Below are positions 925 through 20,380 of a stretch of DNA of 64,000 bases, piece by piece. The DNA is taken from NCBI GenBank assembly GCA_034521595.1, contig JAXHMG010000003.1, positions 1,504,001 to 1,568,000 on the forward strand. The letters are read 5' to 3'. The notes under the pieces were generated by a model, which was not told the DNA's origin, did not search any database, and saw nothing but the letters and a program-made list of their open reading frames with translations. The translations under genes were made by a program, and so were the position numbers. Origin of the DNA: Gemmatimonadota bacterium (GTDB taxonomy: Bacteria > Gemmatimonadota > Gemmatimonadetes > Longimicrobiales > Gaopeijiaceae). Each line of letters opens with the position of its first letter. Position 1 is the first letter of the stretch.

Positions 925-1085
925 CGTGGCCCGGGTGAGCGCAAGAAAACCAGCGCTACTCCCAACAAGCTTCCCGTGCCTCAAGATCAAGACCAGCCGA
1001 TCGAGGATACGCTGCCTCGCGTCCGCTCTGGGCCATGTGGGGGAAGCGAACGAAGTGAGCGGAGCCGGAAACATACTTGTTATGT
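925..1085 (-). repeat. Truncated attC-like site (distal end of the array; outer R' arm missing)
   Basis: GGCCATGTGG...GAACGAAGTGAGCGGAGCCGGAAACATACTTGTTATGTG is nearly identical to the right half of the 13131-13286 repeat. The inner-stem partner CGTGGCC is at 925-931, but the CATAACGTTCAGATGTTTCCG arm is absent. Confidence 0.75.
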
Positions 1086-1294
1086 GATGGGTGCCGCTGT
1101 CCGTCGACATCAGTCACGTCTTGGGGTCAGTCCGCTCTTGCCATGGATCCTTCGCCGCGTCCATGATGCTCGGGTGAAGATCAAAGACATTATCCGTGTC
1201 AACGCCGGTTCAGAAGTGGACAGATCCGACGGAGTAGAGTTTGACACTTCCGGGTCGGGTTGGTTGGTCATCGGGGCATGAGGTTTCTCCTGGC

Positions 1295-2078
1295 TCAGGG
1301 GTGAGGGGACGGCGAGGCCGGCGTTTCTTCGGTGGCGGAGCCGGTAGCTTTCGCCGCGGATGTTGAGGGTGGTGGCATGGTGGAGTAGACGGTCGAGGAG
1401 AGCGATGGCGAGGACGGGATCGGGGAAGATCTCGTCCCATTGGCCGAAGCTCTTGTTGGAGGTGAGGATGATGGACTTCTGGGCCTGGTAGCGCTTGTTG
1501 ACGACCTCGAAGAGGAACGTGGCGTCGTGCTGCTCGAGGGGCAGATACCCGACCTCGTCGAGGATCGAGGACCTTGGGCCGGATCAGGACACGAAGCAGG
1601 ACAGTCGAGCCGGTTCTTCTCGCGATGGGCTCGGGAGCGGGTCACGAGGTCATGGAGCGTGAGGAAGTAGATGCGGTGCCCCTGCTCGATGGCCTTGAGC
1701 GAGAGGCCGATCGCCGAGGTGCGTCTTGCCGACACCGCTGGGTCCGAGGAGCAAGACGTTCTCGCCCTGATGCAGGAAGCGCAGCGTGGCGAGCTCGGCG
1801 ACGACGTCCTTGGGCACCTGAGGCTGAGCCTCGTAGTCGAAGTCTTCGAGCGTCTTGGGCGCCGGGCAGGCCGCTGAGCTTGAGGTTGGTGTTCACCCGC
1901 CGCTCGAAGCGAGCGGCGAGCTCGATGCGTGAGGAGCTCGTCGAGGACCTCGACCGGCGAGCTTCTCGCTCTTCTGGCCCCGCTCCAGGATCTCGATCGA
2001 GAGCCGTGAGCGCGGCTTCCAGCTTCGAGTTGATCGAGCTGGTCGCGGACCCGCTCGTAGCTGACCGCGCGCACTCAT
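1295..2078 (-). pseudogene. istB: IS21 helper ATPase IstB (frameshifted)
   Basis: MSAVSYERVRDQL start overlapping the istA stop; Walker A (GPSGVGKT) and DEVGYLP readable across frames. Confidence 0.85.
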
Positions 2079-3408
2079 GAGGCGCCCCCGCGAGCAACGC
2101 GCTCATAGGCATCGAGCGCGCCTGGATCTCACGACGGGCGCGACCTGCTTGAGGCGATCGAGTCGACCGACGAGCCGAGCTCGGCCGCCGCGACGCGCTG
2201 CATCGAAGCGAGGCGGGCCGCCTCGTCGTCCGCACGCCTTCTGAGTCCACTGCCACGTGTGAGCTGGCGGATCGCCTTCGGCGTGCTCGGCGAGCGTGCA
2301 CGGCCGGCTCCCGGAGGTCGGACGCGATGCCGACCAGGAGCTCGGTCGCCGAGGTAGACGGCGAAGCACGTCCGTCGCTCCTCGGCGGCCGCACCATCAC
2401 CGTGTGGCCGCAGCCGCGGGTCGGGCACGCTGTAGCGCACGCCTCGGAAGCTGAAGTGAGCAGTCGGCGGCCACCTTACGGAGCTCGACGGGCCGCATGT
2501 CGTAGGCCGGCACCGCGCTCGCTCGCCGGAGCTCGGGCAAGCTCGACGACGGTGGCGATCCAGCCGGCCGCTCGCCCGTGGTGCCGTGCACCCGGACGTT
2601 CGCGACCGTGTCGAGCCAGTGCTCGAGCTGACGGTTCAGATCCTCGAGATCGGTGAAGTGAGCGGCCCTCGAGGAACGATTGCTTCACGTAGCCGACGCC
2701 CCGCTCGACCTTGCCCTTCACCCGCGGCCAGTACGGTGGACTCGCCACCGGCAGCACCTCGTAGTGCTCGCACGAAGTCCAGGAACGTGGCGTTCCAGCG
2801 CACCGTGCCCGTCGTCACGTCGTGCTGGTCGACCGCCTGCTTCATGTTGTCGACCAGCAGCTCGCGCGGGCACGCCCAGGCGCTCGAACGCCTCCTTCAT
2901 GCACGCCAGCAGGGTCGGCCGCTTCATCGACGTCGTGAAGCGCGCATACATCCGGCGGCTGTAGCCCAGAACCAAGATGAACACGCACAGCTTCTTCGTT
3001 CGCCGACCCTGCTCGATCGTACCGCACTCGCCCCAGTCGATCTGGGCCTGCCGGCCGGGCAGCGTCTCGAAGCGCTCCATCGACCCGACGCGCATGAACT
3101 CTGCCTTCAGCGGCCGCATGAAGTCGCGGAGGATCGTGAGCCCACCCTCGTAGCCGAGCCCCTCGAGCTCTCGCTTCAGCACCGTGGCCGGCAGGTCGAA
3201 GCGCCTCCAGGCGAGCCCGGATGTAGTCCTTGTACGGATCGAGCTTCGAAGCCCGCCCGGCCCGGGGCTTCGGATACGGCTCGGTCCGGTTCAGATGGTT
3301 GTAAACCGTCTGGCGCGTCACGCCCTGAGCGGCGCGCGATCTCGGCTGATCGTCACGCCCTCTTCGGCCAAAGAATTTGATCTGCATGTGCTTCTCCCGT
3401 AGCATCAT
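2075..3408 (-). pseudogene. istA: IS21 transposase IstA (multiple frameshifts)
   Basis: Fragments SKLDPYKDYI, RFETLPGRQAQIDWG, LGYSRRMY, PYWPRVKGKVERGVGYVK. Confidence 0.88.
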
Positions 3409-4687
3409 CTGTCTCGAAGTCCTCCGGCGCGTGGGGCCGATCCTTGGTCGGACGACCCCAACCTAGCGCGCCAGAGGGCTTCTTTTTGGGTGAGGGGTTC
3501 CGGGGCCCTCTCCTCGCGCCTGCGGCGCTCGGGGCCCACGGCTCCCGCGGCTACGGAAGTGTCAAATTCTCAACCGTCGCTTCTGTCCAAGATCAAACCG
3601 GTGGGGACATCCGTGCGGCCCCAACCTTCTTCCGAGCGGCTTGGAACTGGTTCAGCCACTTCGATACCCTGATGTCGCTCTGGGCTGGCTCGGGAGTGCA
3701 TCCGCCCTGATTGCAGCCTTCTCTGCAGTGGTGGGTTGGATCGTAGCGCGACTCGCTTCGTTCGGACCGGTCCTCAGCTTCTTCCTCGCGCTAATCGCAT
3801 GGGTCTTGGTGTCTGTCGCCTTGGCGCTGAATCGATGGGTTCCAGGTTGGAATGCCCGCTCCCGAAGAGAAGGGGCCGTCCGAGCCTCTCGGGACCAGTG
3901 AGGAGTCTCCGACGGAACTCGTCTTCCACCTGCAGTCTCCGACCGAGACGTTTGACCTACGGATCGCTGGAGCCTTTCCGGGAAAGCTGGGCCTGATCGA
4001 GATCGCGAATCCGACCGAAGCCGTTGAGCGTCTCGGCGCGCTTCTCCTACCGACCGTATTCCGCCGGAATGACCTCTCTCATGACCCGATCTGGTGGTTT
4101 CGTGGCCATTCGAGCCAGTCCGTCGAGACGTTTCGTGATCTCGAAGGCGGCAGGTGCCTCCTCAATCACATGGAACTCACCTTACGGCGCGTCGTCGCAT
4201 ACCGCTCGATCGATACGGCCCACCAATTCGTCTATGTAGAGTGCGACCCTGATCCACCTGTTGGTTCGGATCCCCACTCGCTCCGTAGCCTTGAAGAAAG
4301 GGTCGCGGAACGCGGTTACGCGGCCGAGGAGTACGGCCTCTTTCGGGGCATGCCGTCACTCGGATGGAGTACGATGACGCTGCAGCCGTGGATTAACGGG
4401 AAGCTGTAGATTTCACCACGACGTCAGACCGAGCAGAGGTCAGGCGTCGGTTTCCTTACGAGGTTCAACTTCATCATCTGCGCGAAGTTCCATCCGCTGA
4501 AATCGGAACGCCCTGGATCAATCCGATGGAGGATATCCCGAATGCGATCCTCCGGGGTGGGGCGACTGTTGAAGATCTAGTCGAGCACATCCGGCAACTT
4601 CCGGCGCATCCAGGGGATGGAATGCACCTGGCCTAATCGCTCAGAAGCGAGACCAAGGAACCGATCCATCACCTGAAGGCACCTTTC

Positions 4688-4840
4688 ACATAACGTTCAG
4701 ACGTTTCCGACGTGGCCACCACGGAAGCGCCCACGCTACCTACCCGAGCATACGCTGCGATCTGCTCTCGTGCCACAAAACTCCGAGGCCATGTAGGTGA
4801 AGAGAGCGAAGCGAACGGAACCGGAAACGTTCTGTCATGC
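4688..4840 (-). repeat. attC-like recombination site (R'' degenerate)
   Basis: On the + strand: ACATAAC-GTTCAG-ACGTTTCCG-ACGTGGCC...GGCCATGT...CGGAAACGT-TCT-GTCATGC; nested inverted repeats shared with other copies. Confidence 0.85.
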
Positions 4841-4844
4841 AGAC

Positions 4845-5576
4845 GCTCTGGGCCCCGCTGTGCTGAGGAACCGTGGGAGTCTAGTACACCTGCGCTGTCT
4901 GGCCTTACGGGGAGAGTATCGAGCCCCGATGGTCCGGATGAATCGATCGGCGAAGTCCCCAATTCCACCGGCTCGCCAAGGTTGCCAAGCCCGTCGCTGT
5001 GTCTTCCAGCTAAGGCAAACGCTGTGATGGGAATGGCCAGCGTGAGCATAACGATTCCGTTGCGCACCCCGGAGAAGCTGACCGAAAGAGCGTTTGACCG
5101 AAGATTTGTCACTTTCTGATTCTGTTCAACATAGTAGAGTCGCCTCGCTCGCGCCCTCGATTCCATCCTTAATGACGATCTCTTCGTTGAGCGCAGGTTG
5201 ATACGTCCGAGCGACTTTCATTGCCTCCAACGCCCACCAGCCAGCTGCCAGCAGGTAGATCGCGCCCAGATAGCAGGACCACGGCGACAGCCACCGCTCG
5301 GCGATCACTCGGAAGACCGAAGAAGTTGACGCTGGCAGACAAGATCGCGAAGGAAAGAGTCACCCCAATGATGTTGCTCTTAGCCTTGTCTTCGATGGAT
5401 CGTCGCCGTTCCAGCTCAATACCTTCAAAGAATCGGAGGCGGTCCTCATCGACCGCACTCGCCGTCTGTCGAAGCTCCTTCAGGTGGCAGGAGAACGCGT
5501 CGTCTCGATCCTCCAAGTCCTTAAGGATGGCTTTCCGAGCATTTCTAGCGGCCGGGATATCCAACAGAAAGCACAC
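4845..5576 (-). CDS. Hypothetical membrane protein downstream of the ATP-grasp gene (frameshifted; ends approximate)
   Basis: Consecutive ORF fragments 5169-5576, 5126-5308 and 4669-5166 with ERRRSIEDKAKS followed by three hydrophobic segments. Confidence 0.55.
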
Positions 5577-5620
5577 GGCTCATGCGAGTCACCATCGAGG
5601 AGAGCCGTCCCCCACGGTGA

Positions 5621-6567
5621 TTATCCACGAATGAGAGCTCGTGCCAGAGTCAGGGATATCTCAAGGTCGAGAGCGGACTCCAGCCACACCCACTCTCCGA
5701 GAGGGTTGACCTCCAAGAAGAGGTATTCGCCGTCCCGCTCCATCAGGTCTATCGCCCCATATATCGAGCCCCAGGCGGTCCATCAGTCGAAGGCATCCAT
5801 CGACGACTTCGGTAGGCAATGTGGTCAGTCTATAAGACACGTCACCCTTGCGGAGCCGCCAGTCGCCGTCAATCGACTCGCCGTTGTCCGTGATCGCCAC
5901 CGCCCACCAGGTTGAGCCCACGATCGTAAGGCGAACGTCCACCTTTGGCTGGACACCTTCCTGTAGGACGTACGGCATCTACCGAGTTGCGGGCCTGAGC
6001 CTTGAATGCTTCAGCGCTCATCAGTGTCGTGTAGCCGAAATGGACGTCCGCATCGTCCTCCCAGAGCACGGTGTCCAATCCCTTTACGGCTACGCGCCCG
6101 GCACCAGGAAAGTGGTCAAACGGCCAGTTGCCGATTCTCGTCCATGGGATTTGCAGCCCGGCCTCAACCGCGACCGCGAGCTGCTCAAGCTTGTCGTTCG
6201 GATCTGTAGATCGCGAACGGAGAGTTGATCCAATGCCCACCTGCGGCGACCAATGAGCGGAGCATCGTCTCCCAATGGAGATGTCTCAACTGACTCGGCC
6301 CGGGACTCCCATGCGTTCGAACATACGCAGGCCGCTTGCAGTAGACGGAGTGAGGACCGGACACCGTGAAGGCCTGTCCTGAGGACTCACCGAAGATTGT
6401 CTTGGCTACCGGGTCGACGCTGATCCGGACCGGAGATCCTCGGTATTCAGTCGTTGGTAGGAGGCGTCTAGGTCACGAAGGTGCCCAACGACCAAGTCAG
6501 CGCCGAAATCGAATCGCGACGTGATCAGCAGGATCGTGGGAGCCGAAGAGGAAATGTCGTTACTCAA
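5621..6567 (-). CDS. ATP-grasp RiPP maturase (MvdC/MvdD-like), frameshifted
   Basis: TTG start overlaps the precursor stop; ILLITSRFDFGAD...RLNTED, KLEQLAVAVEAGLQIPWT, VAVKGL, PYVLQE, DVRLTIVG, DWR, FLEVNPLGEWVWLE motifs. Confidence 0.85.
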
Positions 6568-6776
6568 TATCCCTTCTGGTCCTCTCCGGTTTCGACGTCG
6601 TTCTTCTTCGTCTGGGGGCGGGGGCCTTCCGGCCGCCTCATCAGCAGTTCTCCCGATTCCGAGTGAACCCACGCGCCGATCTTCGGGTCATATGCTGCCC
6701 CCCTAGGTGTGGGATCGGATGCGGGGCGCGAGTTCCTGACTGCTCCTGCTATCAGCATGTGCTTAGACAGTTGCAT
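6564..6776 (-). CDS. Graspetide (omega-ester peptide) precursor, 70 aa
   Basis: RBS GGAGGA; C-terminal core PQTKKNDVETGEDQKGY rich in T/K/D/E; lies directly upstream of the ATP-grasp gene. Confidence 0.85.
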   Translation of the reverse strand: MQLSKHMLIAGAVRNSRPASDPTPRGAAYDPKIGAWVHSESGELLMRRPEGPRPQTKKNDVETGEDQKGY

Positions 6777-6983
6777 CGATCCTCCAGGACGTGATGACAT
6801 ACGACAAGACATGGGGCGGCACGAACACTATCCGTTTCTCTACAACAAGAGGGGTCCAGAGTGTCTCATAGACACGATGGAAGGGCTGGCCTCCTGGTTT
6901 TTTCGTGGATTAGCATCCCGAAGTAGCCCGGAGTGCCAGAGCCACCTGCGGCGTTCGAGCCGCACAGCCCAGGAGACCAGCCC

Positions 6984-8125
6984 ATGTCTGCGCCAATCTT
7001 CTTCGTCGGCCTCGACGTGCACAAGGACACGGTGACGGTCGCGGTGTTTCGCAACCGCGATGTGGAGCCGATGCGGGTCGATCGACTTCCCCACGACCAC
7101 AAGAAGCTGCGTCGCTACTTCCAGCGTCTCGAGGCCGAGGGCTCGAGTCCGAGCCTGCTACGAAGCCTCCGGGGCGGGCTACGTGCTGCAGCGCGCGCTC
7201 ACCGAGTGGGGCATCGCCTGCGAGCTCGCCGCTCCGTCCCTCATTCCGAGGCGAGCGCGGTGAGCACCGCAAGACCGATCGACGCGATGCGATCGAGATC
7301 GCCCGGGACTTTCGCGACGATCGCCGCGTGCTCATCCACATCCCCACCGAAGCCGACGAGCGCGTCCGCGACTTGGTGCGCTGCCGCGAGACCTTCCAGC
7401 GCGAGATCGTCAAGTCACGCCATTACATCCTGAAGTTCCTGCGCCGCCGAGGCTTCATCTACCGCGACGGCACGCACTGGACCACGCGCCACATGAACTG
7501 GATCCGACAGGTGCTCGAGCCCGGCACCCTCGCCGAGGAGGACGGCGTCGTGCTCGCCGAGTACCTTGCGCTCCTCGAGTACGAGTTGCAGCGCAGAGAC
7601 GAGCTCGACCGCAGGATCGAGGCCCTGGCGCTCACGCCCCGCTACAAGCCCCTCGTCGACCGTATCCGCTGCTTCCGGGGCTTCAAGACCCAGGCGGCCA
7701 TGGTGCTCGCCACCGAGATCGGCGACGTGCGTCGCTTCGAGAGTCCGCGCCAGCTCATGGCCTATCTCGGACTCGTGCCCGGCGAGAACTCCTCGGGCGA
7801 TCGAAGGCGACTCGGGGCCATCACCAAAGCCGGCAACGCACGCGTGCGTCATGTGCTCATCCAGGCCGCCTGGCAGTACCGACGACGGCCTGCCGTCGGT
7901 GTCACCCTCCGGCGTCGTCAGCAAGGTCAGGACCCGGCCGTCATCGCCCATGCCTGGAAGTGTCAGGACCGTCTCTACAAGGTCTTCCACCGCCTGGCCG
8001 CCAAGAAGCCCAAGCCCGTCGCCGCCACGGCCGTCGCACGTGAGATGGTCGGCTTCCTGTGGGCCGTGCTCAACGACATCGATGTCGCCCAACTCCAGGA
8101 CGCGGAGGTGAGCCGAGCCGCCTGA
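6984..8125 (+). CDS. IS110 transposase/recombinase (indels near 7145 and 7257)
   Basis: VGLDVHKD, CYEASG, KTDRRDA, YLGLVPGENSSG, ITKAGN motifs. Confidence 0.92.
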
Positions 8126-8340
8126 CCCCGATCCTGACACTTCACGTCCGGAAGGAGAGCGCCCGGGGCACGATAGGAGAACGCCTCGAAACGTTATGGG
8201 GTCCGGCTCCGTGCCCAATCCCCGCACATAGACTCCGGCCAGCTCCCGACGAATCCGTCTCATGATGCTCTGAGCCTCAACGCTCAACCATCGAATATCA
8301 GCAGGATGCATCGTCGAAGACGCCCCGGCCTCTCCTTCGG
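8126..8340 (+). ncRNA. Putative bridge/seek RNA of the IS110 element
   Basis: Non-coding 3' end containing ATATCAG (8295-8301, equal to the right end plus core) and CATCGT (8309-8314, reverse complement of left-end ACGATG at 6874-6879). Confidence 0.6.
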
Positions 8341-8421
8341 ACCGCGACTTGACAACACCCTTCCATATCAGGCGACCGGAACCGGGGCGTCCGTGGGCGT
8401 GGTGCGCCGGACCCGGAGCTC

Positions 8422-8793
8422 GTGGAGCGCCCTCGGCGTCGTACGTTCACGGCGGCCTACAAGCTCAAGATCGTGCAGGAAGCGGACGCGTGCGAGAAGC
8501 GGGGCGAGGTGGGCGCGTTGCTGCGTCGTGAGGGGCTCTACACGTCCCACCTCTCGGCGTGGCGCAAGGAGCGCGACAAGGGAGCGCTCCAGGCGCTGTC
8601 GAAGCCTCGGGGTCGGCCGAAGCCGGATCCACGCGACGGCGAGATCGAGCGGCTGCGCCGGCGTGCGGAGCGAGCCGAAGCCGAGCTGGCCACGGCCCAC
8701 AAGGTCATCGAGGTGCAGGGAAACGTCTCGGCGCTCTTGGAAGAGCTGCTCCAGGCTGGGGGCGCGAAGCAGAACGGGAGCAGCGAGCGGTGA
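8422..8793 (+). CDS. IS3 OrfA (HTH)
   Basis: RRRTFTAAYKLKIVQEADAC...GALLRREGLYTSHLSAWR. Confidence 0.88.
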   Translation: MERPRRRTFTAAYKLKIVQEADACEKRGEVGALLRREGLYTSHLSAWRKERDKGALQALSKPRGRPKPDPRDGEIERLRRRAERAEAELATAHKVIEVQGNVSALLEELLQAGGAKQNGSSER

Positions 8794-9794
8794 CGGAGCA
8801 GGCCGTGGAAGAGCTCACGCCACTGATCGGGACGAGTCCGGCGTGCCGGGCCCTCGGGACGGCACGGGCGACGATCTACCGGCGTCGGCGTCCACCCGAG
8901 CCCCGGCCCCGGAAGCCTCGGCCGAAGCCGGCGCGGGCGCTCTCGGAACAGGAGCGCGACGCGGTGCTCGAAGCGCTGCACTCCGAGCGCTTCGTCGATG
9001 CCTCACCGGCACAGGTCTGGGCCACGCTGCTCGATGAAGGCCGTTACCTGGCGTCGGAGCGCACGATGTACCGCCTCCTGGCCGAGCAGAGCGGGAGCCG
9101 GGAGCGGCGCGACCAGTTGGTCCATCCGGCCTATGCCAAGCCGGAGTTGCTGGCCACGCGGCCCAACGAGCTCTGGAGCTGGGACATCACCAAGCTCCTG
9201 GGGCCGGCCAAGTGGACCTACTTCTACCTCTACGTCATCCTGGACGTCTTCAGCCGCTACGTCGTGGGCTGGACGATCCAGCACCGTGAGTCGGCCTCCG
9301 TGGCCCAGCAGCTCATCGCCCAGAGCATCGAGCAGCAGGACGTCGGGGCCGGCGAGCTCACGATCCACGCCGACCGCGGCACCTCGATGCGCTCGAAGCC
9401 GGTCGCGTTCCTGCTCGCCGACCTCGGCGTCACGAAGACGCACTCGAGGCCCTACACCTCGACGGACAACCCCTACTCCGAGGCCCAGTTCAAGACGCTC
9501 AAGTACCGGCCCGACTTCCCCCACCGCTTCGCCTCGATCCTGCACGCGAGGTCCTGGGCCCGGGGCTTCTTCGCCTGGTACAACCATGAGCACCGCCACT
9601 CCGGCCTTGGCCTCATGACCCCGACCACGGTCCACTACGGCCGGGCCGACGAGGTCAGGGAACAGCGTGGTGAGGTGCTCGAGGCCGCCTACGCGGCCAA
9701 CCCCGAACGCTTCGTGCGCGGGCTACCCCAGCCGCCCAAGTCGCCCACCGCAGCTTGGATCAACCCACCCGCCACCGAGGAGGATGCTCACTAA
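8790..9794 (+). CDS. IS3 OrfB DDE transposase
   Basis: WSWDITKL, IHADRG, DNPYSEAQFKTLK; GTGA overlap with orfA. Confidence 0.92.
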   Translation: MTEQAVEELTPLIGTSPACRALGTARATIYRRRRPPEPRPRKPRPKPARALSEQERDAVLEALHSERFVDASPAQVWATLLDEGRYLASERTMYRLLAEQSGSRERRDQLVHPAYAKPELLATRPNELWSWDITKLLGPAKWTYFYLYVILDVFSRYVVGWTIQHRESASVAQQLIAQSIEQQDVGAGELTIHADRGTSMRSKPVAFLLADLGVTKTHSRPYTSTDNPYSEAQFKTLKYRPDFPHRFASILHARSWARGFFAWYNHEHRHSGLGLMTPTTVHYGRADEVREQRGEVLEAAYAANPERFVRGLPQPPKSPTAAWINPPATEEDAH

Positions 9795-9836
9795 TATCAG
9801 ACCACCTTCTGTCTCATCGGCGTTGACAGGTTCCGC

Positions 9837-9957
9837 TTCACGCTAGATACGTACGGATGCTTCGGCCCAGAACTGAAACAGAAAAAGCGACGGGCCGCGC
9901 CCGCCGCCACCCTATCCGTCCGCGGTCTTGCTTCGGTCCTTCTTAATGGTGTTATGA
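9837..9957 (-). repeat. Remnant of an attC site disrupted by IS3/IS110
   Basis: GTTATGAGTCGTTGCAGGC at 9951 is an inverted match to GCCTGCAATGACTCATAAC at 11010-11028; the remainder differs from the main attC family. Confidence 0.5.
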
Positions 9958-9979
9958 GTCGTTGCAGGCACGGTCGTCG

Positions 9980-10937
9980 TCACCGTACCGCTACCCCTTC
10001 TTTGGCTCGTTGGTCGTATACTGTCCCACGATCGACGGCACCTCTCCTGGTACGGCGCTCCAGATCCTCCCCTTCGCTCGATCAGGTCTGAGAACAGGGC
10101 AACTGTGTCGAGATGAATACCTCTTTCGCTCTCCTCCTTACGGCGGCTAAGCCAATTACCTTCTCCTGGCCCTCCGTGCGATAGCGTTCAATCGCATCGG
10201 GTGACTAGCTGATCGGCAGGATCGGAGCTTCGGCTCTGCAGGGACTCCCGAAGTTTGTGATGCACGACGGCCAGCCCGGCAACGTACTCACGGATCAGCG
10301 GTACTCAGATCGACCACCTCCCCAAGATCGGCCAGTTCATCGAGAACGTTCGACTGAAGCCTCCATCCTCCCGGAGACGCTCGGTATCGATGCTCGGTAC
10401 TATTGCATTTCGGCGGGTCGAGCCTTCTTCAAGTCGGTCGCGCCAGAACTGATGGGACATGCGCACCGCACCGCAACTCCCCGGGTGCTGCGTGTAGTTC
10501 CGAAGGGCCTCCATCGCCCGGTATCCGAGACGGGAGTCATACTCGATGGATCGCCATGCGTTGAACCGGGCAAGACCGGTCCGAGTCTTTGCCGAATCGG
10601 CAGCTGAGTAGGTGACGGCGCCTGATCCAGGTATCCTCTTCCACCCGAAAGGAGGTTCACGACTCTTCGGTCGACATCGTGGATGGTTCCGACCGCACTC
10701 GGACCAAGACCCCTCTGTACAGAGGAGTGAATACAACGCCCGATCGAGCAGGGCACCTTCGTACTCATAGAAGTTTGCCAGGACGAGATGGAAGCCTTCT
10801 TCCAAAGCGAGGGCGTCCACCAGTAGACCCTTGGCGTCCTTCAGCTCCTGGAAGTCGCTCCGATCAAGCGGGAGGAATGGTGTCTTCCCGAAGACGGCGA
10901 TCTGACCAGAGCCGTGTCCGACCTGATCATCGTTCAT
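9980..10937 (-). CDS. Cassette gene, hypothetical protein with HEPN-like RxxxxH motif (frameshifted; end approximate)
   Basis: Helical protein with RVVNLLSGGRGYLDQ and YRAMEALRNYTQH. Confidence 0.55.
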
Positions 10938-11021
10938 ACGGAAATCTGGATTGCTGCGTTTACCAAGAGAGAAGAGGAGGGACACCCCCCCGACGTCGCG
11001 CGAGATCCAGCCTGCAATGAC

Positions 11022-11143
11022 TCATAACGAATCAGGGGTTTCCGAACTTGCGGCCTGGCGCGGCTCGTCGCGCTCGCACGAGACGTGACAGGGCGGAAGT
11101 CAGGCCGGAGGGGCCCCGGAGCCGGGAACCCTCACAGTGGAGG
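11022..11143 (-). repeat. attC-like site, divergent member (R'' degenerate)
   Basis: TCATAAC-GAATCA-GGGGTTTCCG...GGCCTG...CAGGCC...GGAGC-CGGGAACCC-TCACA-GTGGAGG; same architecture as the others. Confidence 0.7.
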
Positions 11144-11169: not shown

Positions 11170-11905
11170 CATCCGTCCTATCGGGACCCATCCCAAGTGC
11201 GGGCTTTACGGATGCGCGTTCGAATCCTTCTCGGCAGTAGCGGGTCTCCCGCATCCAACCGGTACTTTCGCGAAAGTAATTCTCAGCGACGTTCTCCTGC
11301 CTTGCCTGCTTCCCCCAGTCGCACCAAAACAGGAGACAAACGATCTAAGATCCGGATGTCTCCCGAGATACCTCGTCTCCACGCAACTCTTGGAGGAGCT
11401 CACCGACAAAACCCTCCCTCCCGCTGTATCCCCGCATACTCATCAATCGTCCTGCAGAGCCTCTTCTATGTACATCCGAGCTGCCGCACGCACACTCCGT
11501 CTTCTCTAGAGACTTCGCCCGATCAGCAGCAGCGCTGAGACTCATTTCTCAGCTTCCAGAATCTTTGGTTAGCTTCATAGTCTATCACCCTCCCGAAATT
11601 GATCCAGTTTACCAAACTCTCATTTTCCCGCGCCATCCAGCGGGCCTCAAGGTCCTCTGCACCTTCCTCATCGAGATCGTCAGCCAAGATGAGAACCTTG
11701 TACTCGTCGTCGAGATGCCTCTTCACGTAGAATTCCCAGAGCTCATGCCCATTCTTCTCCCACGCACGGCGCCCCTTGCCCTTCCCGACGTAGAAGATCT
11801 CGCCATCGCGATCCACATGCGCGTACACGTAGAACCGACGCGGATTCGTTCGATCGGCCTCGTCGGATGGTGTCAGCCTCTGAGGCGAAGTGGAGTCACT
11901 GAGTG
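11170..11905 (-). CDS. GIY-YIG nuclease domain protein with helical C-terminus (frameshifted; ends approximate)
   Basis: FYVYAHVDRDGEIFYVGKGKGRRAW...AEDLEARWM...LVNWIN. Confidence 0.8.
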
Positions 11906-11980
11906 ACAGAGCGATACCGCGATTGGTAAAATGAAACAGCAGCTCGTTATGTGGCGTGCTGCACTTGGTCCATGACGCCA

Positions 11981-12700
11981 CTACTGCTCGGGGTAAACAC
12001 CCAACAACGCGGCGACGCTTGCTTTCCACTCCTCTCGGCACCCCCTCATCGCGACAGTAGCTCCGAAAGCGACTTCAATTTGTGTTGAAGAGGGGTGAAC
12101 GAGGTTCGCTCGACGTTGAATATCGGTGACCGCCTCTAGATCAGCGCTGAACCCAGTCGATGGACAGTACGCGATCCTCACCGGTTTCGATGAGGTGGTA
12201 CCTTCTGGAAACGACCGCCCTTCGCTCTGTCTACAATCAGCAGAGGACCACGAGGCCGACGCCCTTCTACGTCTGCGGCGGCGAGCAACGCGGTTCCCAT
12301 CACGGGAACTAAGGTCATGAGGCCCAACCGGAGATAGATCGGGGTCATCTGCCGATGCTCCATCGAAGACCTCCTTCGGGTAGCATCCAGTAACATCCGC
12401 CATCTCCCCTTCGGGGATGGCCGCTCGGGCGAACCGACCGCCTGCCGCCGGCCAGGCGTCTGATTAGAGCGATCGCAATCGCCGCGCAACGATCCAGATT
12501 CTCTTCAGGATAGTCACTGACGACGAGGAAGCCGTCGCCAAACTGATGCGCGAAGAGCCGCTCCCGTTCCTTCGGAAACACACGACGACCGATGCGGGCG
12601 ATGGCAGCCATGAGTTCGCCAATCGCCTGCACGTGGTCCCGCGACGATCGCTGCTTGAAGCCCTGAACGTCGATGTACAGTGACGATCGGTCGTCAGCGG
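11981..12700 (-). CDS. Class III nucleotidyl-cyclase-like protein (frameshifted; start approximate)
   Basis: LYIDVQGF, HQFGDGFLVVS, ARAAI-EGEMADV, VMGTALL resemble the metal-binding and core motifs of the cyclase fold. Confidence 0.55.
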
Positions 12701-13069: not shown

Positions 13070-13130
13070 GGAGATCGGCGCCGCCTCCCGATAGAGCTTC
13101 CAACTCACGGCACCTCGTTCCTAGCATGCC

Positions 13131-13286
13131 ACATAACGTTCAGATGTTTCCGACGTGGCCACAGCATATGCGCTCATCTTTCCTGGGCCTTCGGAGTGCA
13201 GCTGACAGCATACGATATCAGCACGTTCGAGGCCATGTAGGTCGGAGCGAACGAAGTGAGCGGAGCCGGAAACATTCTTGTTATGT
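13131..13286 (-). repeat. Intact attC-like site
   Basis: ACATAAC / GTTATGT perfect R pair; ATGTTTCCG / CGGAAACAT; ACGTGGCC / GGCCATGT. Confidence 0.92.
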
Positions 13287-13335
13287 GATGGCCTTTCGCT
13301 GTTTCCCTACACCGATTCGCACTCTTGGGCAGCGG

Positions 13336-14533: not shown

Positions 14534-14561
14534 GTTCTCCTCCGTCCAAAGAATGGCTTTC

Positions 14562-14721
14562 ACATAACGTTCAGATGTTGCCGACGTGGCCCACCACCGC
14601 TCCCTCCGGAGCCGGCCACCCGTCATGAATACGGCTTAGGCGCTCAACCCGCCACACCCGTTCCGGGCCATGTAGGCCGGAGCGCCCGCAGGGCGCGGAG
14701 CCGGCAACATACTTGTTAGCA
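14562..14721 (-). repeat. Intact attC-like site
   Basis: ACATAAC...ATGTTGCCG-ACGTGGCCC...GGGCCATGT...CGGCAACAT-ACTT-GTTAGCA. Confidence 0.92.
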
Positions 14722-15179
14722 GATGTTGGCTTCCTGTGGTCCACGCCACACTTACGGTTGACTTCACGAGGGACGTCGCGTCGACGGCTATCCGTCCCGG
14801 TGGTTCGACCTGAAACGGAAACCCCGCGGACACACGGTCGAGGGATCGCGCGAAGGAAGCCCAAGGAGCGAGCAGACCGAAGGTGTGGCCCCAGTCGACC
14901 GATGATGCCTCGGAGCGGGTCAACGCGCGATTCACCAAAACCTCTTTGGCGCCGTCGACGAAGAACCCGCCGGGTGGACATCGCAGTCGTGGATCGAGCC
15001 CGCCCGACCGTGTGGAGCCACACGGGGGGAGGGACAGCGGCGAATCCATAGGGTGGTGGGCGTGACTCGAGCCGAAGGTGCGAACCCCAGTCGACCGTAG
15101 ATGCCTGGGAGGATGTCAACGCACGAGGAGTTGAAGGCGTCGCCGCTGTCCTCGAACCTGACCGTCCATGGCCAATGTC

Positions 15180-17262: not shown

Positions 17263-17474
17263 CTTTCGTCTCTGCTTGCTGTGAAGTAGCGCGCTCTTTC
17301 GGTTCCCGCTTCGGCGGAAGCATCTCCCTATGTTAATGGTTTCCCCGTCTCTCGGCATTCGCACCCCCTCCCTGCTGGTGCTCACCGCGGGGCCGGCGCA
17401 TGCCGGCGGTCCCGGTCTGCCGAGCTCGCGGCCGATCGCATCACGACCGTGTCTCCCTGCGCTGTAGGCTGGGG

Positions 17475-17528
17475 TTGCATCTTCAGCGTGTTACCAGTAT
17501 ATATCGTGTATCGACGATCAACGATATA
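17475..17528 (+). promoter_or_regulatory. Sigma70-like promoter overlapped by a putative ArsR operator
   Basis: TTGCAT-17 bp-TATATA; inverted repeat TATATCGT (17500-17507) / ACGATATA (17521-17528). Confidence 0.7.
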
Positions 17529-17540
17529 GGAGCACCTGTG

Positions 17541-17942
17541 ATGCCAGTTGTAGCCGAGACGCAGTCCTTGCCCTTGGACGCACCAGCCGCCGAGCCGGCG
17601 TCCGGTGCAGAGATCGCCGCGATCGCCAAGGCGCTAGGCCATCCGGCCCGGATTCACATCGTGCGGTTGTTGCTGGAGGAGCCCTGCGTCGGCCGCGAGA
17701 TCGTGGGCGAGGTGGGGCTGGCGCAGTCCACGGTTTCCGAGCATCTGCGCATTCTCAAAGCAGCCGGCATCATCATGGGCGAAATCGAACATCCGCGAGT
17801 CTGCTACTCCCTCAATCCCGACAGCGTGGCTCCGCTGGCGGGACTGCTGAGCGCGGTGTTTGAGAAGGACAACCGTTGCGAAGTCGACGATGCCGACTGC
17901 TGCCCACCTGCGGGCTGCGAATCCACGAACACCTCTTGCTGA
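17541..17942 (+). CDS. arsR: ArsR/SmtB family repressor
   Basis: AKALGHPARIHI, LAQSTVSEHLRILK, C-terminal CC..C. Confidence 0.9.
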   Translation: MPVVAETQSLPLDAPAAEPASGAEIAAIAKALGHPARIHIVRLLLEEPCVGREIVGEVGLAQSTVSEHLRILKAAGIIMGEIEHPRVCYSLNPDSVAPLAGLLSAVFEKDNRCEVDDADCCPPAGCESTNTSC

Positions 17943-17956
17943 TGAGGAGCGCTCTC

Positions 17957-18562
17957 ATGCCTACAGTCACGATTTATGATCCACCCATGTGTTGCTCGAC
18001 GGGCGTCTGCGGCCCCGAGGTCGATCCGAAGCTGGTGCAATTCGCCGGTGACCTCGACTGGCTGAAGGCCCGGGGCGTCGAGGTCCGGCGCGTGAATCTC
18101 GCGCAGGAGCCCGACCGCTTCGTCGCGAACCCCACGGTCAAGGCGATCCTCGATCGCTCGGGAGACGATGAGCTGCCGGTAGTCGTCGTGGGTGACGAGT
18201 TGATGGCGAGCGGGCGGTACCCCAGCCGCGACGAGCTCGCCGAGAGCACGGGCGTCGGAGTCGAGCCTCCGGCCGAAGAAGTGACCGACGGGGTCAAAGA
18301 GCTCATCGCCATCGGCGCCGCCATCGGCGCAAGCTGTGAGCCCTGTTTCAAGTTTCACTACGACAAGGCTCGAAAGCTGGGCGTCTCCGTCGAGGCCATG
18401 CGCGAGGCCGTCCGGGTCGGCGACGCCGTCAAGGCTGCGTCGGCCAAGAACATGCTCGGACTCGCCGACCGGATCCTCGGCGCCGAAGAGCCCGAAGCGG
18501 CCGCCAGCGCCTGCTGCGGCGACGCCGACGAGCCCCAGGAGAAAGCCTCCGGCTGCTGTTGA
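17957..18562 (+). CDS. arsD: Arsenite metallochaperone ArsD fused to a CMD/AhpD-like domain
   Basis: IYDPPMCCSTGVCG...YPSRDEL, then KELIAIGAAIGASCEPCFKFH. Confidence 0.9.
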   Translation: MPTVTIYDPPMCCSTGVCGPEVDPKLVQFAGDLDWLKARGVEVRRVNLAQEPDRFVANPTVKAILDRSGDDELPVVVVGDELMASGRYPSRDELAESTGVGVEPPAEEVTDGVKELIAIGAAIGASCEPCFKFHYDKARKLGVSVEAMREAVRVGDAVKAASAKNMLGLADRILGAEEPEAAASACCGDADEPQEKASGCC

Positions 18563-18610
18563 TCGCCGCCCGAGCGCTACGCATACCTTATAGAAAGAAG
18601 GAAGCACACC

Positions 18611-20380
18611 GTGTTCAACGATCTACCCAAGTTCGTCTTCTTCACCGGTAAGGGCGGGGTCGGCAAGACGTCGCTGGCATGCGCCACGGCCGTCAGCCTG
18701 GCCGACCGCGACAAAAAGGTCCTGCTCGTCAGCACCGACCCGGCCTCCAACGTCGGGCAGGTATTCGATACGGAGATCGGCAACCGCATGGTGCCCGTCT
18801 CGGGCGTGCCGGGGCTCGACGCCATCGAGATCAACCCCGAGGAAGCGGCCGCCGACTACCGGGAGCGGATCGTCGGCCCCATGCGTGACGTGCTCCCGGA
18901 GAACGCGCTCAAGAGCATCGAGGAACAGCTCTCCGGCGCCTGCACCACGGAGATCGCCGCTTTCGACGAGTTCACGGGCCTCCTGACGCATCAGGAGCGC
19001 ATCGAAGGCTACGACCACGTCCTCTTCGATACGGCTCCGACGGGCCACACGATTCGCCTGCTCCAACTGCCCGGAGCCTGGTCGGGCTTCCTCGAGGAGG
19101 GGAAGGGCGACGCCTCCTGCCTCGGTCCGCTGGCCGGCCTGGAGAAGCAGCGCGAGCGGTACGCGGCAGCGGTGGCGCGCCTTTCCGACGGCGACAGCAC
19201 GCGTCTCGTCCTCGTGGCTCGCCCGCGCCCATCGGCCCTCGCCGAGGCCGCGCGGGCGTCACGCGAGCTGGCGGCCATCGGCATCCGGAACCAGCAGCTC
19301 GCCATCAACGGGCTGATGCCCGAGGACGTCGAGGGCGACCCGCTGGCCACGGCGCTGGCCGAGCGGGACCGGACGGCATTGGCCGAGATGGACGCGGACC
19401 TCGAGGACCTTCCCCGCGTGACGGTCCCCCTCCGGTCGGAGAACCTCATGGGTGTCCAGGCGCTTCGCCGGTTCGCCGAGGGCGCCCCGGATACCGACGG
19501 CGCTCCCGTCCCGGACCCGTCGGCTCAGGACGAGCTACCCGATCTCGAATCGCTCCTCGACGAGGTGGAAAAGCCCGGCAAAGGGCTCCTCATGTTCATG
19601 GGCAAGGGCGGCGTGGGGAAGACGACCATGGCCGCGGCCTTCGCGGCCGACCTCGCGGCCCGGGGGCACGAGGTGCTGCTGACCACCACGGATCCCGCCG
19701 CGCACCTGGTGGAAACGCTGGGAGGAGAGGTCCCGGGCCTCACCGTCAGCCGGATCGATCCGGCCGAGGAGACGCAGCGCTACCGGGACCGCGTGCTCAA
19801 AACCAAGGGCGAGGGCTTGGACGCGGAGGCGCGGGCCATGCTGGAAGAGGATCTGCGCTCTCCGTGCACGGAGGAGATCGCCGTGTTCCAGGCGTTCTCC
19901 AAGGTCATCCGGGAAAGCAGCCGGCGCTTCGTGGTGATGGATACGGCGCCCACGGGGCACACGTTGCTGTTGCTGGACGCCACCGGATCCTATCACCGCG
20001 ACGTCCTTCGGCACATGGCACCGGACCAGGAAGGTCACGTCACCACGCCGATGATGCAGCTTCAAGACCCGAGCCAGACGAAGATCTTCATCGTGACGCT
20101 GCCCGAGACGACACCCGTCGTGGAAGCGGCGCACCTACAGGAGGATCTCCGACGCGCGGGCATCGAGCCCTGGGGCTGGATCATCAACGCGAGCCTCGCG
20201 GCGGCGCGGACCCAGCATCCCCTGCTCCTCCGCCGGGCTGCCTCGGAGTACACGCAGGTCGCCAAGGTGCGCGACGAATTGGCGTCACGACACGCCGTCG
20301 TGCCCATGCAGGCCGAAGAGCCGGTGGGCCGCGAGCACCTCATGGCCCTGGGCCGGCCGATGACGCCTTCGGAGGTGTGA
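18611..20380 (+). CDS. arsA: Arsenical pump-driving ATPase
   Basis: Two GKGGVGKT and two DTAPTGH motifs; GACTTEIA, SCLGP, SPCTEEIA cysteines. Confidence 0.97.
   Translation: MFNDLPKFVFFTGKGGVGKTSLACATAVSLADRDKKVLLVSTDPASNVGQVFDTEIGNRMVPVSGVPGLDAIEINPEEAAADYRERIVGPMRDVLPENALKSIEEQLSGACTTEIAAFDEFTGLLTHQERIEGYDHVLFDTAPTGHTIRLLQLPGAWSGFLEEGKGDASCLGPLAGLEKQRERYAAAVARLSDGDSTRLVLVARPRPSALAEAARASRELAAIGIRNQQLAINGLMPEDVEGDPLATALAERDRTALAEMDADLEDLPRVTVPLRSENLMGVQALRRFAEGAPDTDGAPVPDPSAQDELPDLESLLDEVEKPGKGLLMFMGKGGVGKTTMAAAFAADLAARGHEVLLTTTDPAAHLVETLGGEVPGLTVSRIDPAEETQRYRDRVLKTKGEGLDAEARAMLEEDLRSPCTEEIAVFQAFSKVIRESSRRFVVMDTAPTGHTLLLLDATGSYHRDVLRHMAPDQEGHVTTPMMQLQDPSQTKIFIVTLPETTPVVEAAHLQEDLRRAGIEPWGWIINASLAAARTQHPLLLRRAASEYTQVAKVRDELASRHAVVPMQAEEPVGREHLMALGRPMTPSEV

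Follow-up and report, generated by a model that had tools for sequence, protein, structure and literature searches.

A probable self-contained group-7 graspetide unit with an unannotated membrane protein, in a cassette-like position of a Gemmatimonadota genome

The stretch of DNA analysed here, called the window, comprises 64,000 nucleotides of contig JAXHMG010000003.1 (positions 1,504,001 to 1,568,000) in the assembly GCA_034521595.1 of a Gemmatimonadota bacterium. The genome is 3.49 Mb long, lies in 3 contigs and is 93% complete. Judged on one housekeeping-size protein, its nearest relatives are Longimicrobiales and Gemmatimonadetes metagenome-assembled genomes (MAGs), at 64% identity. Between positions 4834 and 6870 of the window, three genes are arranged head to tail on the minus strand: a precursor peptide gene is followed by an ATP-grasp ligase gene and then by a gene for a membrane protein. 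A first-pass annotation, made from the letters alone, had described this region as a complete graspetide unit of precursor, MvdC/D-like ATP-grasp enzyme and membrane protein, and we found all three genes:

6776-6564, minus strand: precursor peptide of 70 aa; open reading frame (ORF) with the leader motifs H..L and G.W and the core TKKNDVETGEDQKGY
5621-6567, minus strand: ATP-grasp peptide ligase (graspetide maturase); matches to TIGR04187, MvdC and MvdD on pieces
5576 to about 4836, minus strand: third gene, encoding a membrane protein with three transmembrane (TM) helices; located by tblastn of homologues, in three frame pieces

The precursor lies within an enclosing minus-strand ORF of 82 aa (6812-6564), and its 70-aa form is read from an ATG at 6776. 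GGAGGA at 6785-6780 precedes this start codon and the C-terminal end of the peptide is TKKNDVETGEDQKGY, as had been proposed. The TTG start codon of the ligase, at 6567, overlaps the TGA stop codon of the precursor; the translational coupling of the two genes that was suggested earlier is thus visible in the sequence. ORF and family scans revealed neither a protease gene nor an ABC exporter gene between the two ends of the unit. A sigma-70 scan 5' of the precursor gave no promoter-like site, and an Rfam search across the whole window gave zero matches. No RNA sequencing run is among the public runs listed as sharing sequence with the window.

The ligase is broken in the window into at least five frame pieces, with switches near 6433, ~6200, 5981 and 5766. 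Four of five pieces match TIGR04187 (profile positions 1-37, 124-192, 197-266 and 267-311), with E values of 0.004 to 4e-12 and scores of 16-46 bits. The last pieces also match MvdC and MvdD (TIGR04185/TIGR04184). All 40 of the homologous ligases described below align to this stretch in four frame blocks (tblastn), and intact homologues match TIGR04187 end to end (E 1e-50 to 1e-57). None of three ligases compared with the PADLOC models gave a match.

Seven relatives of the precursor are present in the protein collection, and KK.DVETGEDQKGY is invariant among them (alignment A1). A scan of one genome per species with the pattern DVETGEDQ found 41 precursor loci, which span at least seven phyla (Pseudomonadota, Bacillota, Bacteroidota, Ignavibacteriota, Acidobacteriota, Gemmatimonadota and Actinomycetota). 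The precursor core is near-invariant across these phyla; the conservation of DVETGEDQ itself holds by construction, because the scan pattern was that string. Two findings place the peptide in graspetide group 7. The core [TS]KKxD[VIL]ETGEDQKG and the leader motifs H.LL and G.W are present (in A1, in the 41 loci and in the published consensus), and an MvdC/D-type ATP-grasp ligase adjoins the precursor in the same operon.

Marinomonasin is reportedly a product of Marinomonas fungiae, as Kaweewan et al. are said to have described in 2021. The supplement of Makarova 2022 (PMC8939145) contains a cluster171 with the consensus TKKxDVETGEDQKGE, labelled gr_07 of Lee 2020; the available portion of the main text of that paper does not mention this cluster. 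The supplement of Carter 2026 (PMC13097080) assigns a Marinomonas fungiae precursor to group 7 and contains ETGEDQKG 364 times. That precursor is identical to the one at L033, one of our 41 loci. According to the available text of Ayikpoe 2022 (PMC9576775), Gra-3 (group 7) and marinomonasin each undergo three dehydrations. The peptide family is already catalogued, as graspetide group 7, as cluster171 and as the marinomonasin family; high novelty of the peptide therefore does not hold.

To define the extent of the unit, all ORFs of at least 50 aa in the 41 loci were clustered. Only three sense-strand families occur in more than four loci, namely the precursor (40/41), the ligase (40/41) and the third protein (34/41). 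Their order is conserved, with the ligase starting about 3 nt after the precursor and the third protein starting at the end of the ligase, so that the claimed linkage of the membrane gene extends to homologous loci. The third gene is missing from seven loci. Three of them break off where the contig stops, the ligase is truncated in two and absent from one, and in the remaining one (L013) an IS110 transposase directly follows the ligase. Clusters that otherwise recur, in 8 to 11 loci, comprise short opposite-strand ORFs within the unit, which are taken as antisense artefacts. Across the 41 loci, conservation extends neither to a protease or an ABC exporter nor to any further gene, and the first-pass statement that a protease and an ABC exporter are missing thus applies to the homologues as well as to the window. 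The nearest-neighbour genes of the 41 loci include one GNAT, one MFS and one LysE gene.

In the window, the frame of the third gene switches near 5300 and 5150. Its homologues are about 250 aa long with three hydrophobic helices, and the window copy shares the EDKAK and IRNG motifs with them (alignment A2). Pfam, NCBIfam and PADLOC assigned no family to this protein, nor to any of 19 additional family members. A profile built from 29 members matches 1471 representative clusters when the limit is E <= 0.001, and 321 remain at E <= 1e-30. The AlphaFold model is all helical (predicted local distance difference test, 80.7). Foldseek against the PDB returned nothing at E <= 0.001, and the best VIA-align wide match (Z 10) was to generic long-helix bundles, below the level that is meaningful for helical proteins. 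From the hydrophobic helices and the distribution of charges, the N-terminus is predicted to be inside and the C-terminus outside. In this topology the cytoplasmic face would carry the conserved motifs EDKAK, ahead of helix 1, and N..R.N...S...IRNG, ahead of helix 3; the predicted outside tail is variable. This unannotated membrane-protein family, tightly linked to group-7 graspetides, is one new lead from the locus, and the company of defence islands described below is the other.

A few weak leads were obtained for the third protein. Neighbouring clusters in the ESM Atlas are named SLATT (0.91) and PycTM (0.86). The SLATT_5 profile reached E 0.036 in 2 of 29 members, below its cut-off, and PADLOC gave weak CARF_TM and PycTM matches (E 0.002-0.006) in one of six proteins. 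Assignment to SLATT was rejected: hhalign against a two-sequence SLATT_5 alignment, the only SLATT family compared, gave a probability of 0.1.

The frame breaks were examined with public sequencing runs. Run X1 contains 75% of the sampled words of the stretch, and its separately assembled contigs span 4485-5495, 5585-6137 and 6228-6994 at a depth of 4 to 5.4. Relative to the window, these contigs show changes at 5766 (-1), 5980-5982 (+2) and 6433 (+4), and also at 4832/4840/4882; three further indels are not itemised. Record 2 (4897-5495), in the third gene, carries two gaps without itemised positions. Every itemised indel in the ligase coincides with a frame switch, and three of the four ligase frameshifts are absent from X1. 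With the X1 differences applied by script, one open frame extends over 5585-6137 and another over 6228-6560. Against a profile of 29 intact ligases, these restored frames score 174 bits (positions 164-318) and 70 bits (7-112). Because the X1 differences restore an open frame, errors of the assembly are the most likely cause of the breaks. They would most likely be local errors in the consensus, or else a minor variant, in a population that contains an intact unit. The frameshifts had been taken for errors from the start, and the X1 contigs support this. In the third gene, the same differences place the computed stop codon inside the attC-like core. Runs X2 and X3 cover just repeat or insertion sequence (IS) parts. 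ORFs of more than 800 aa are present elsewhere in the window.

The unit is bounded by repeats that resemble the attC sites of integrons. The features concerned are as follows:

4684-4838, plus strand: attC-like repeat of a family of about 165 nt (nhmmer E 3e-42 and 1e-36); left cassette boundary
4834-4857, unstranded: left terminal inverted repeat; outer core of the attC-like site and first cassette bases
6851-6870, unstranded: right terminal inverted repeat; ends in the half core CTCATA, cut by an IS110 element
6871-8188 (right limit approximate), plus strand: IS110-family IS in the next attC-like site (Pfam Transposase_20, E 1e-20)
9951-11028: second cassette with similar extended inverted ends (GTTATGAGTCGTTGCAGGC / GCCTGCAATGACTCATAAC, 95% complementary)

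The repeats have CATAAC at the start and GTTATG at the end, which are mutually inverted, and a closing 9-bp stem, ACGTTTCCG/CGGAAACGT. In the X1 contigs, the outer core of the repeat at 4684-4838 becomes GTTATGA. Folding of the repeats is modest (z -1 to -2 against shuffles). On its left the unit is bounded by a full member of the repeat family and on its right by a half core only, which abuts the IS110 element. In the window as it stands, pairing of the two ends requires a 1-nt gap and leaves two mismatches; after the 1-nt deletion seen in X1, 18 of 20 positions pair. An ungapped search that allowed up to three mismatches returned 6851-6870 itself and no other site, with a chance expectation of 0.01. 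The match between the ends, noted in the first-pass annotation, is thus real but imperfect. The ends are cassette-like, in line with its description, and the unit lies within an array of attC-like repeats. The IS110 element is present in a single copy in the genome, and its transposase is spread over two frames in the window. One X1 contig (record 4) bridges 6870/6871, and ACGTTATGGGGTCCGG at 8189 resembles a continuation of the interrupted core.

Across the genome there are 34 matches to the ~165-nt repeat family, of which 31 are on contig C3 and all on one strand. The main array is at C3:1.5-32.7 kb, and smaller clusters include window positions 988-1090, 4684-4838, 13126-13290 and 14558-14728. 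The 31 same-strand repeats are scattered over 2 Mb of C3 (0.3, 0.97, 1.01, 1.45, 1.5 and 1.96 Mb). Cargo of the array with a Pfam name consists of HepT/MNT, Phd, Gp49-HTH, DUF6932-HTH and SnoaL. Next to the main array lies the gene that best matches the integron integrase profile TIGR02249; the match is split into two pieces of 109 + 102 bits and leaves out profile positions 175-234, and alignment to canonical IntI shows that the IntI-specific insert is absent. This gene encodes a tyrosine recombinase (G000:C3:34259-35500, outside the window) with a 130-aa N-terminal extension, and between it and the first repeat there is a gene for a protein of 405 aa without a Pfam family (C3:32771-33988). 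A related Longimicrobiales genome, G004, carries a canonical IntI (345 bits) with a repeat array downstream of the integrase, in the same layout. The attC profile of the present genome gave no match in the 41 homologous loci, in genome G291 or in the G004 array; the repeats are lineage-specific in sequence. Taken together, the unit is likely a cassette in an attC-like array in this genome.

Among 60 further genomes from its family, one carries the precursor, and the single genome from the same genus lacks it. The locus in the same-family genome is of a different subtype, and within 10 kb it has neither an array nor a recombinase. In the ligase tree, one copy each from Gemmatimonadota, Gammaproteobacteria and Bacteroidota are in one clade (support 99), and an Ignavibacteriota copy is nested inside Bacillota (support 97). 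The three-gene unit thus apparently moves between phyla. Very close units are found at L011, L012 and L018, in Gammaproteobacteria, Bacteroidota and Gemmatimonadetes MAGs; the L018 and L011 ligases are 79% identical with branch lengths of 0.11, and this closeness suggests a recent transfer between phyla.

Among the repeats that flank homologous units, some are tRNA ends, terminators or coding duplications. In an Acidobacteriaceae MAG (L023:4775-4818 and 6967-7010), a 44-bp direct repeat, 91% identical, exactly flanks the unit. The repeat resembles coding sequence that was duplicated, as would result from insertion of the unit into a gene. In a Cyclobacteriaceae MAG (L035:2768-4616 and 8264-8459), the unit lies between 196-nt direct repeats (97% identical) and adjoins a tyrosine recombinase and a DUF6624 protein. 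DUF6624 is frequent in other graspetide groups, according to the available parts of Carter 2026 (PMC13097080). The flanking repeats at L017 do not fold, and the repeat at L016 folds no better than shuffles. At L017, a partial IntI at the end of the contig lies 3.2 kb from the unit; since all genes of the unit are directed towards that integrase, cassette status is not supported there. A search for attC sites at homologous loci, which had been proposed at the outset, thus found cassette carriage in no other genome. The idea of a mobile module stands as far as the cassette-type ends here and the apparent movement between phyla are concerned, but not for a canonical integrase or for cassettes elsewhere.

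The surroundings of the unit were scanned for defence genes by taking the two nearest non-overlapping ORFs of at least 110 aa on each side (143 of 144 ORFs; one was dropped because of a size limit). The control comprised 12 regions from 11 of the same genomes, with 105 ORFs. Within the set of 41 loci, L045 and L046 are near copies of one another. Pfam detected restriction, Abi, toxin-antitoxin or CRISPR proteins in 9 of the 41 loci, and transposase, integrase, resolvase or conjugation genes are near the unit in about a dozen. PADLOC at E <= 1e-10 matched 27/143 ORFs in 17/41 loci and, in the control, 9/105 ORFs in 7/12 regions (ORF-level p 0.03; no enrichment at the locus level); the control matches are mostly generic ABC-ATPase, kinase or SNF2 domains. 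A strict rule, fixed after seeing the data, accepted matches with at least 70% profile coverage, or with E <= 1e-40 where the end of the locus truncates the ORF. It gave 18/143 ORFs against 1/105 in the control (p 4e-4) and 15/41 loci against 1/12 regions (p 0.08). The proteins accepted include type I and IIG restriction enzymes, AbiE, AbiL, Septu PtuA, PD-Lambda-1, PD-T7-4, Cas1, Avs4-like, DruE and LmuB. The survey of homologous loci envisaged in the first-pass annotation thus found full-length defence genes at 15 of the 41, against a small control, and the association of the unit with defence islands is suggestive. Its description of the neighbouring cassettes of the window as defence-like did not hold: these cassettes have no defence family except for one short, weak PADLOC match. 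This is a 28-residue match to PD-T4-3 (E 2e-5) in a cassette ORF at 11526-12074 on the minus strand.

We interpret the three genes as a self-contained group-7 (marinomonasin-type) graspetide unit in this Gemmatimonadota genome, with a probability of about 0.72. The analysis shows which three genes these are, that they are linked, where repeats bound them and that their frames can be restored; the ring chemistry is predicted by analogy with relatives that have been characterised, and a role for the membrane protein is likewise a prediction. In the proposed mechanism, the leader of the precursor would be bound by the ATP-grasp ligase. With ATP, the ligase would join Thr/Lys to Asp/Glu side chains in the core TKKNDVETGEDQKGY, most likely forming three rings. 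The third protein would be the dedicated membrane partner of the peptide, most likely for export or self-protection. The unit would be carried as one cassette in the attC-like array, with IS110 having later landed in the neighbouring repeat, and the frameshifts in the window would be consensus errors of the assembly with no decay of the genes.

Several observations weigh against this interpretation. For a weapon that is exported, a core so nearly invariant across phyla would be unusual. No family and no structural relative was found for the third protein, and its role in export or immunity is a predicted one. Three intact homologous ligases score 173-193 bits against TIGR04187 (GRASP_SAV_5884), for which the cut-off is 350; because of these scores, we regard the ligase family as a sister group of TIGR04187, outside that subfamily. 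The fourth ligase switch (~6200) and the start of the third gene fall in the X1 gaps 6137-6228 and 5495-5585, the X1 depth is low, and X1 may be the source sample of the window itself. No canonical integron integrase (TIGR02249 at 265 bits or more, with the IntI-specific insert) was found in the 93%-complete assembly. The orientation of the genes within the cassette, sense or antisense, is ambiguous. A 30-nt insert in one arm leaves reasoning from arm lengths (the extrahelical base) equivocal. That a stop codon falls inside the core says little, since cores hold stops on both strands, and array cargo is found on both strands. The layout relative to the recombinase and the layout in G004 lean to the sense orientation.

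Three other explanations were considered. That the unit is a decaying pseudogene remnant, with frameshifts that are real in the strain and a unit that is dead, is very unlikely. Cassette arrays are known for many pseudogenes, at least six frame switches fall inside about 1.7 kb, the IS110 and IS21 genes nearby are likewise broken, and the window ligase is on a long tree branch (1.3). However, the X1 differences fall exactly at frame switches and restore homology, the precursor is intact, and the long ORFs elsewhere in the window argue that the assembly is otherwise sound. It is also unlikely that the 165-nt repeats are some other dispersed repeat and not attC, the unit having arrived by an IS element or island recombination. 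In its favour, no IntI with the specific insert is present in the assembly. The repeats exceed the typical length of attC as well as folding only modestly, and elsewhere the unit is in non-array contexts such as tRNA/SmpB genes, conjugative-element genes and the 44-bp or 196-bp direct repeats. On the other hand, the copies are numerous and those on C3 share one direction; they are spaced at 0.6-3 kb in arrays, one of which is beside a tyrosine recombinase gene. Their cores are mutually inverted, the integrase-array layout recurs in G004 with a canonical IntI, the cargo (toxin-antitoxin pairs, SnoaL) is typical of cassettes, and an integrase could be sought in only 93% of the genome.

A third explanation concerns the function of the unit, which might be a conflict system acting in the producer cell, such as phage defence, abortive infection or an addiction module. 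We consider this rather improbable. The membrane protein would be the effector, and the cross-linked peptide (or the precursor with the ligase) would be a sensor, trigger or brake; an effector role of the membrane protein inside the cell is speculation, and a defence role of the unit, predicted from context, is possible. Such a system would be consistent with loci that conserve neither a protease nor an exporter, with the near-invariant core and with the variable, mobile places in which the unit is found. The ORF-level excess of PADLOC matches, under both the loose and the strict rule, and the HepT/MNT, Phd and Gp49-HTH toxin-antitoxin cassettes of the main array point the same way, as do the SLATT, PycTM and CARF_TM leads for the third protein. 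The strict rule was, however, defined post hoc, the difference between loci and control regions is less clear under it and absent under the loose rule, and the control is small. Islands collect many accessory genes, defence among others. Neither the ligases nor the third protein gave a convincing PADLOC match, the profile comparison with SLATT_5 failed, and the window's own neighbouring cassettes carry almost nothing defence-like. Characterised relatives are treated as natural products in the available parts of the published accounts. The broader claim, that the three group-7 genes form a conflict module that is widespread in defence islands and cassette arrays and has a peptide that is not exported, is decidedly doubtful. 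In such a module, an invariant cytoplasmic cross-linked peptide may control a dedicated 3-TM membrane effector; if true, it would be the first RiPP-based (RiPP, peptide made on the ribosome and modified after translation) abortive-infection or addiction system of its kind.

For the graspetide interpretation, the closest characterised counterparts are the marinomonasin cluster and Gra-3 of Bacillus sp. S66, the latter as given in the available text of Ayikpoe 2022 (PMC9576775). The marinomonasin cluster of Marinomonas fungiae has the same precursor architecture and core (TKKCDVETGEDQKGE compared with TKKNDVETGEDQKGY) and a homologous ligase, and at L033 the third gene directly follows the ligase, as in the window. 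The window precursor differs in being about 40% identical and in its location in a Gemmatimonadota cassette array, and its ring pattern is a predicted one. Microviridin (MdnA, MvdC/MvdD) shares the ATP-grasp superfamily and the leader-guided ester and amide rings between side chains, which are predicted here. Its pathway employs a pair of ligases together with an acetyltransferase and an ABC transporter, and its leader has the motif PFFARFL; the window unit has none of these. The thuringinin loci (cluster 18) and 'cluster 40' in the available portion of Makarova 2022 (PMC8939145) likewise contain a small membrane protein that belongs to no known family, and no known transporter. Its authors proposed peptide transport for cluster 18 and called the role of cluster 40 unclear, as that portion states (PMC8939145).

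With integron cassettes and clusters of attC sites lacking integron-integrases (CALIN), the locus shares imperfect-palindrome repeats in the same sense, inverted core sites and short, mostly unannotated gene sets, and as in CALIN the gene sets in this genome's array include toxin-antitoxin pairs. It differs in having three genes (~2 kb) in one cassette, repeats of ~165 nt, no canonical IntI in the assembly and ends that extend the core pairing by about 14 bp. SLATT, PycTM and CARF-TM effectors are likewise small helical membrane proteins with a cytoplasmic helical head, encoded beside an enzyme gene. In contrast, the third protein has three helices and not two, gives no significant sequence or profile match to them, and is in a unit without a nucleotide-signalling enzyme. 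In a search of a paper library, graspetides and integrons came up together in just one preprint, on Porphyromonas integrative and conjugative elements with a different graspetide type. For graspetides and phage defence, no other paper naming a graspetide was among the best 15 of 2,242.

With a peptide family that is already known, the locus is unremarkable when taken alone. The third-protein family, with more than 1400 unannotated sequence clusters, gains a first functional context through one graspetide group, and group 7 gains a testable third component. A whole RiPP pathway within one repeat-bounded cassette suggests one route by which such pathways could spread. The restriction, Abi, Septu, Druantia and CRISPR genes nearby, together with the invariant core and the lack of an exporter, make the question of a conflict role worth pursuing. 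The result on the frameshifts also warns that local indel errors can occur in the cassette arrays of long-read metagenome assemblies.

Further insertion sequences lie around the unit. In the X1 contigs, the IS110 element has 1-base deletions at 7146 and 7258, and 7470-7708 is replaced by 25 other bases. In another Longimicrobiales genome (L013:6264-7499), an IS110-family transposase gene follows the ligase in the place of the third gene; an IS110 element thus abuts the unit in both genomes of Longimicrobiales, and the two transposases are not similar at E 1e-5. In the window, the IS110 element (6871-8188) and a second IS (8300-9950), with an rve/HTH_32 transposase at 8559-9794, are back to back, apparently in one attC-like site. 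At 1197-3609 there is an element of the IS21 family, with fragments of IstB and rve and with terminal inverted repeats of 56 nt. Its second copy, in the main array (G000:C3:18834-21197), is 89% identical with 109 gap positions, and these differences again suggest local indel noise or decay in arrays. Just beyond the cassette cluster, at 17400-20380, there are a gene for an ArsR-type regulator and a gene for a two-domain ArsA ATPase (E 1e-99).

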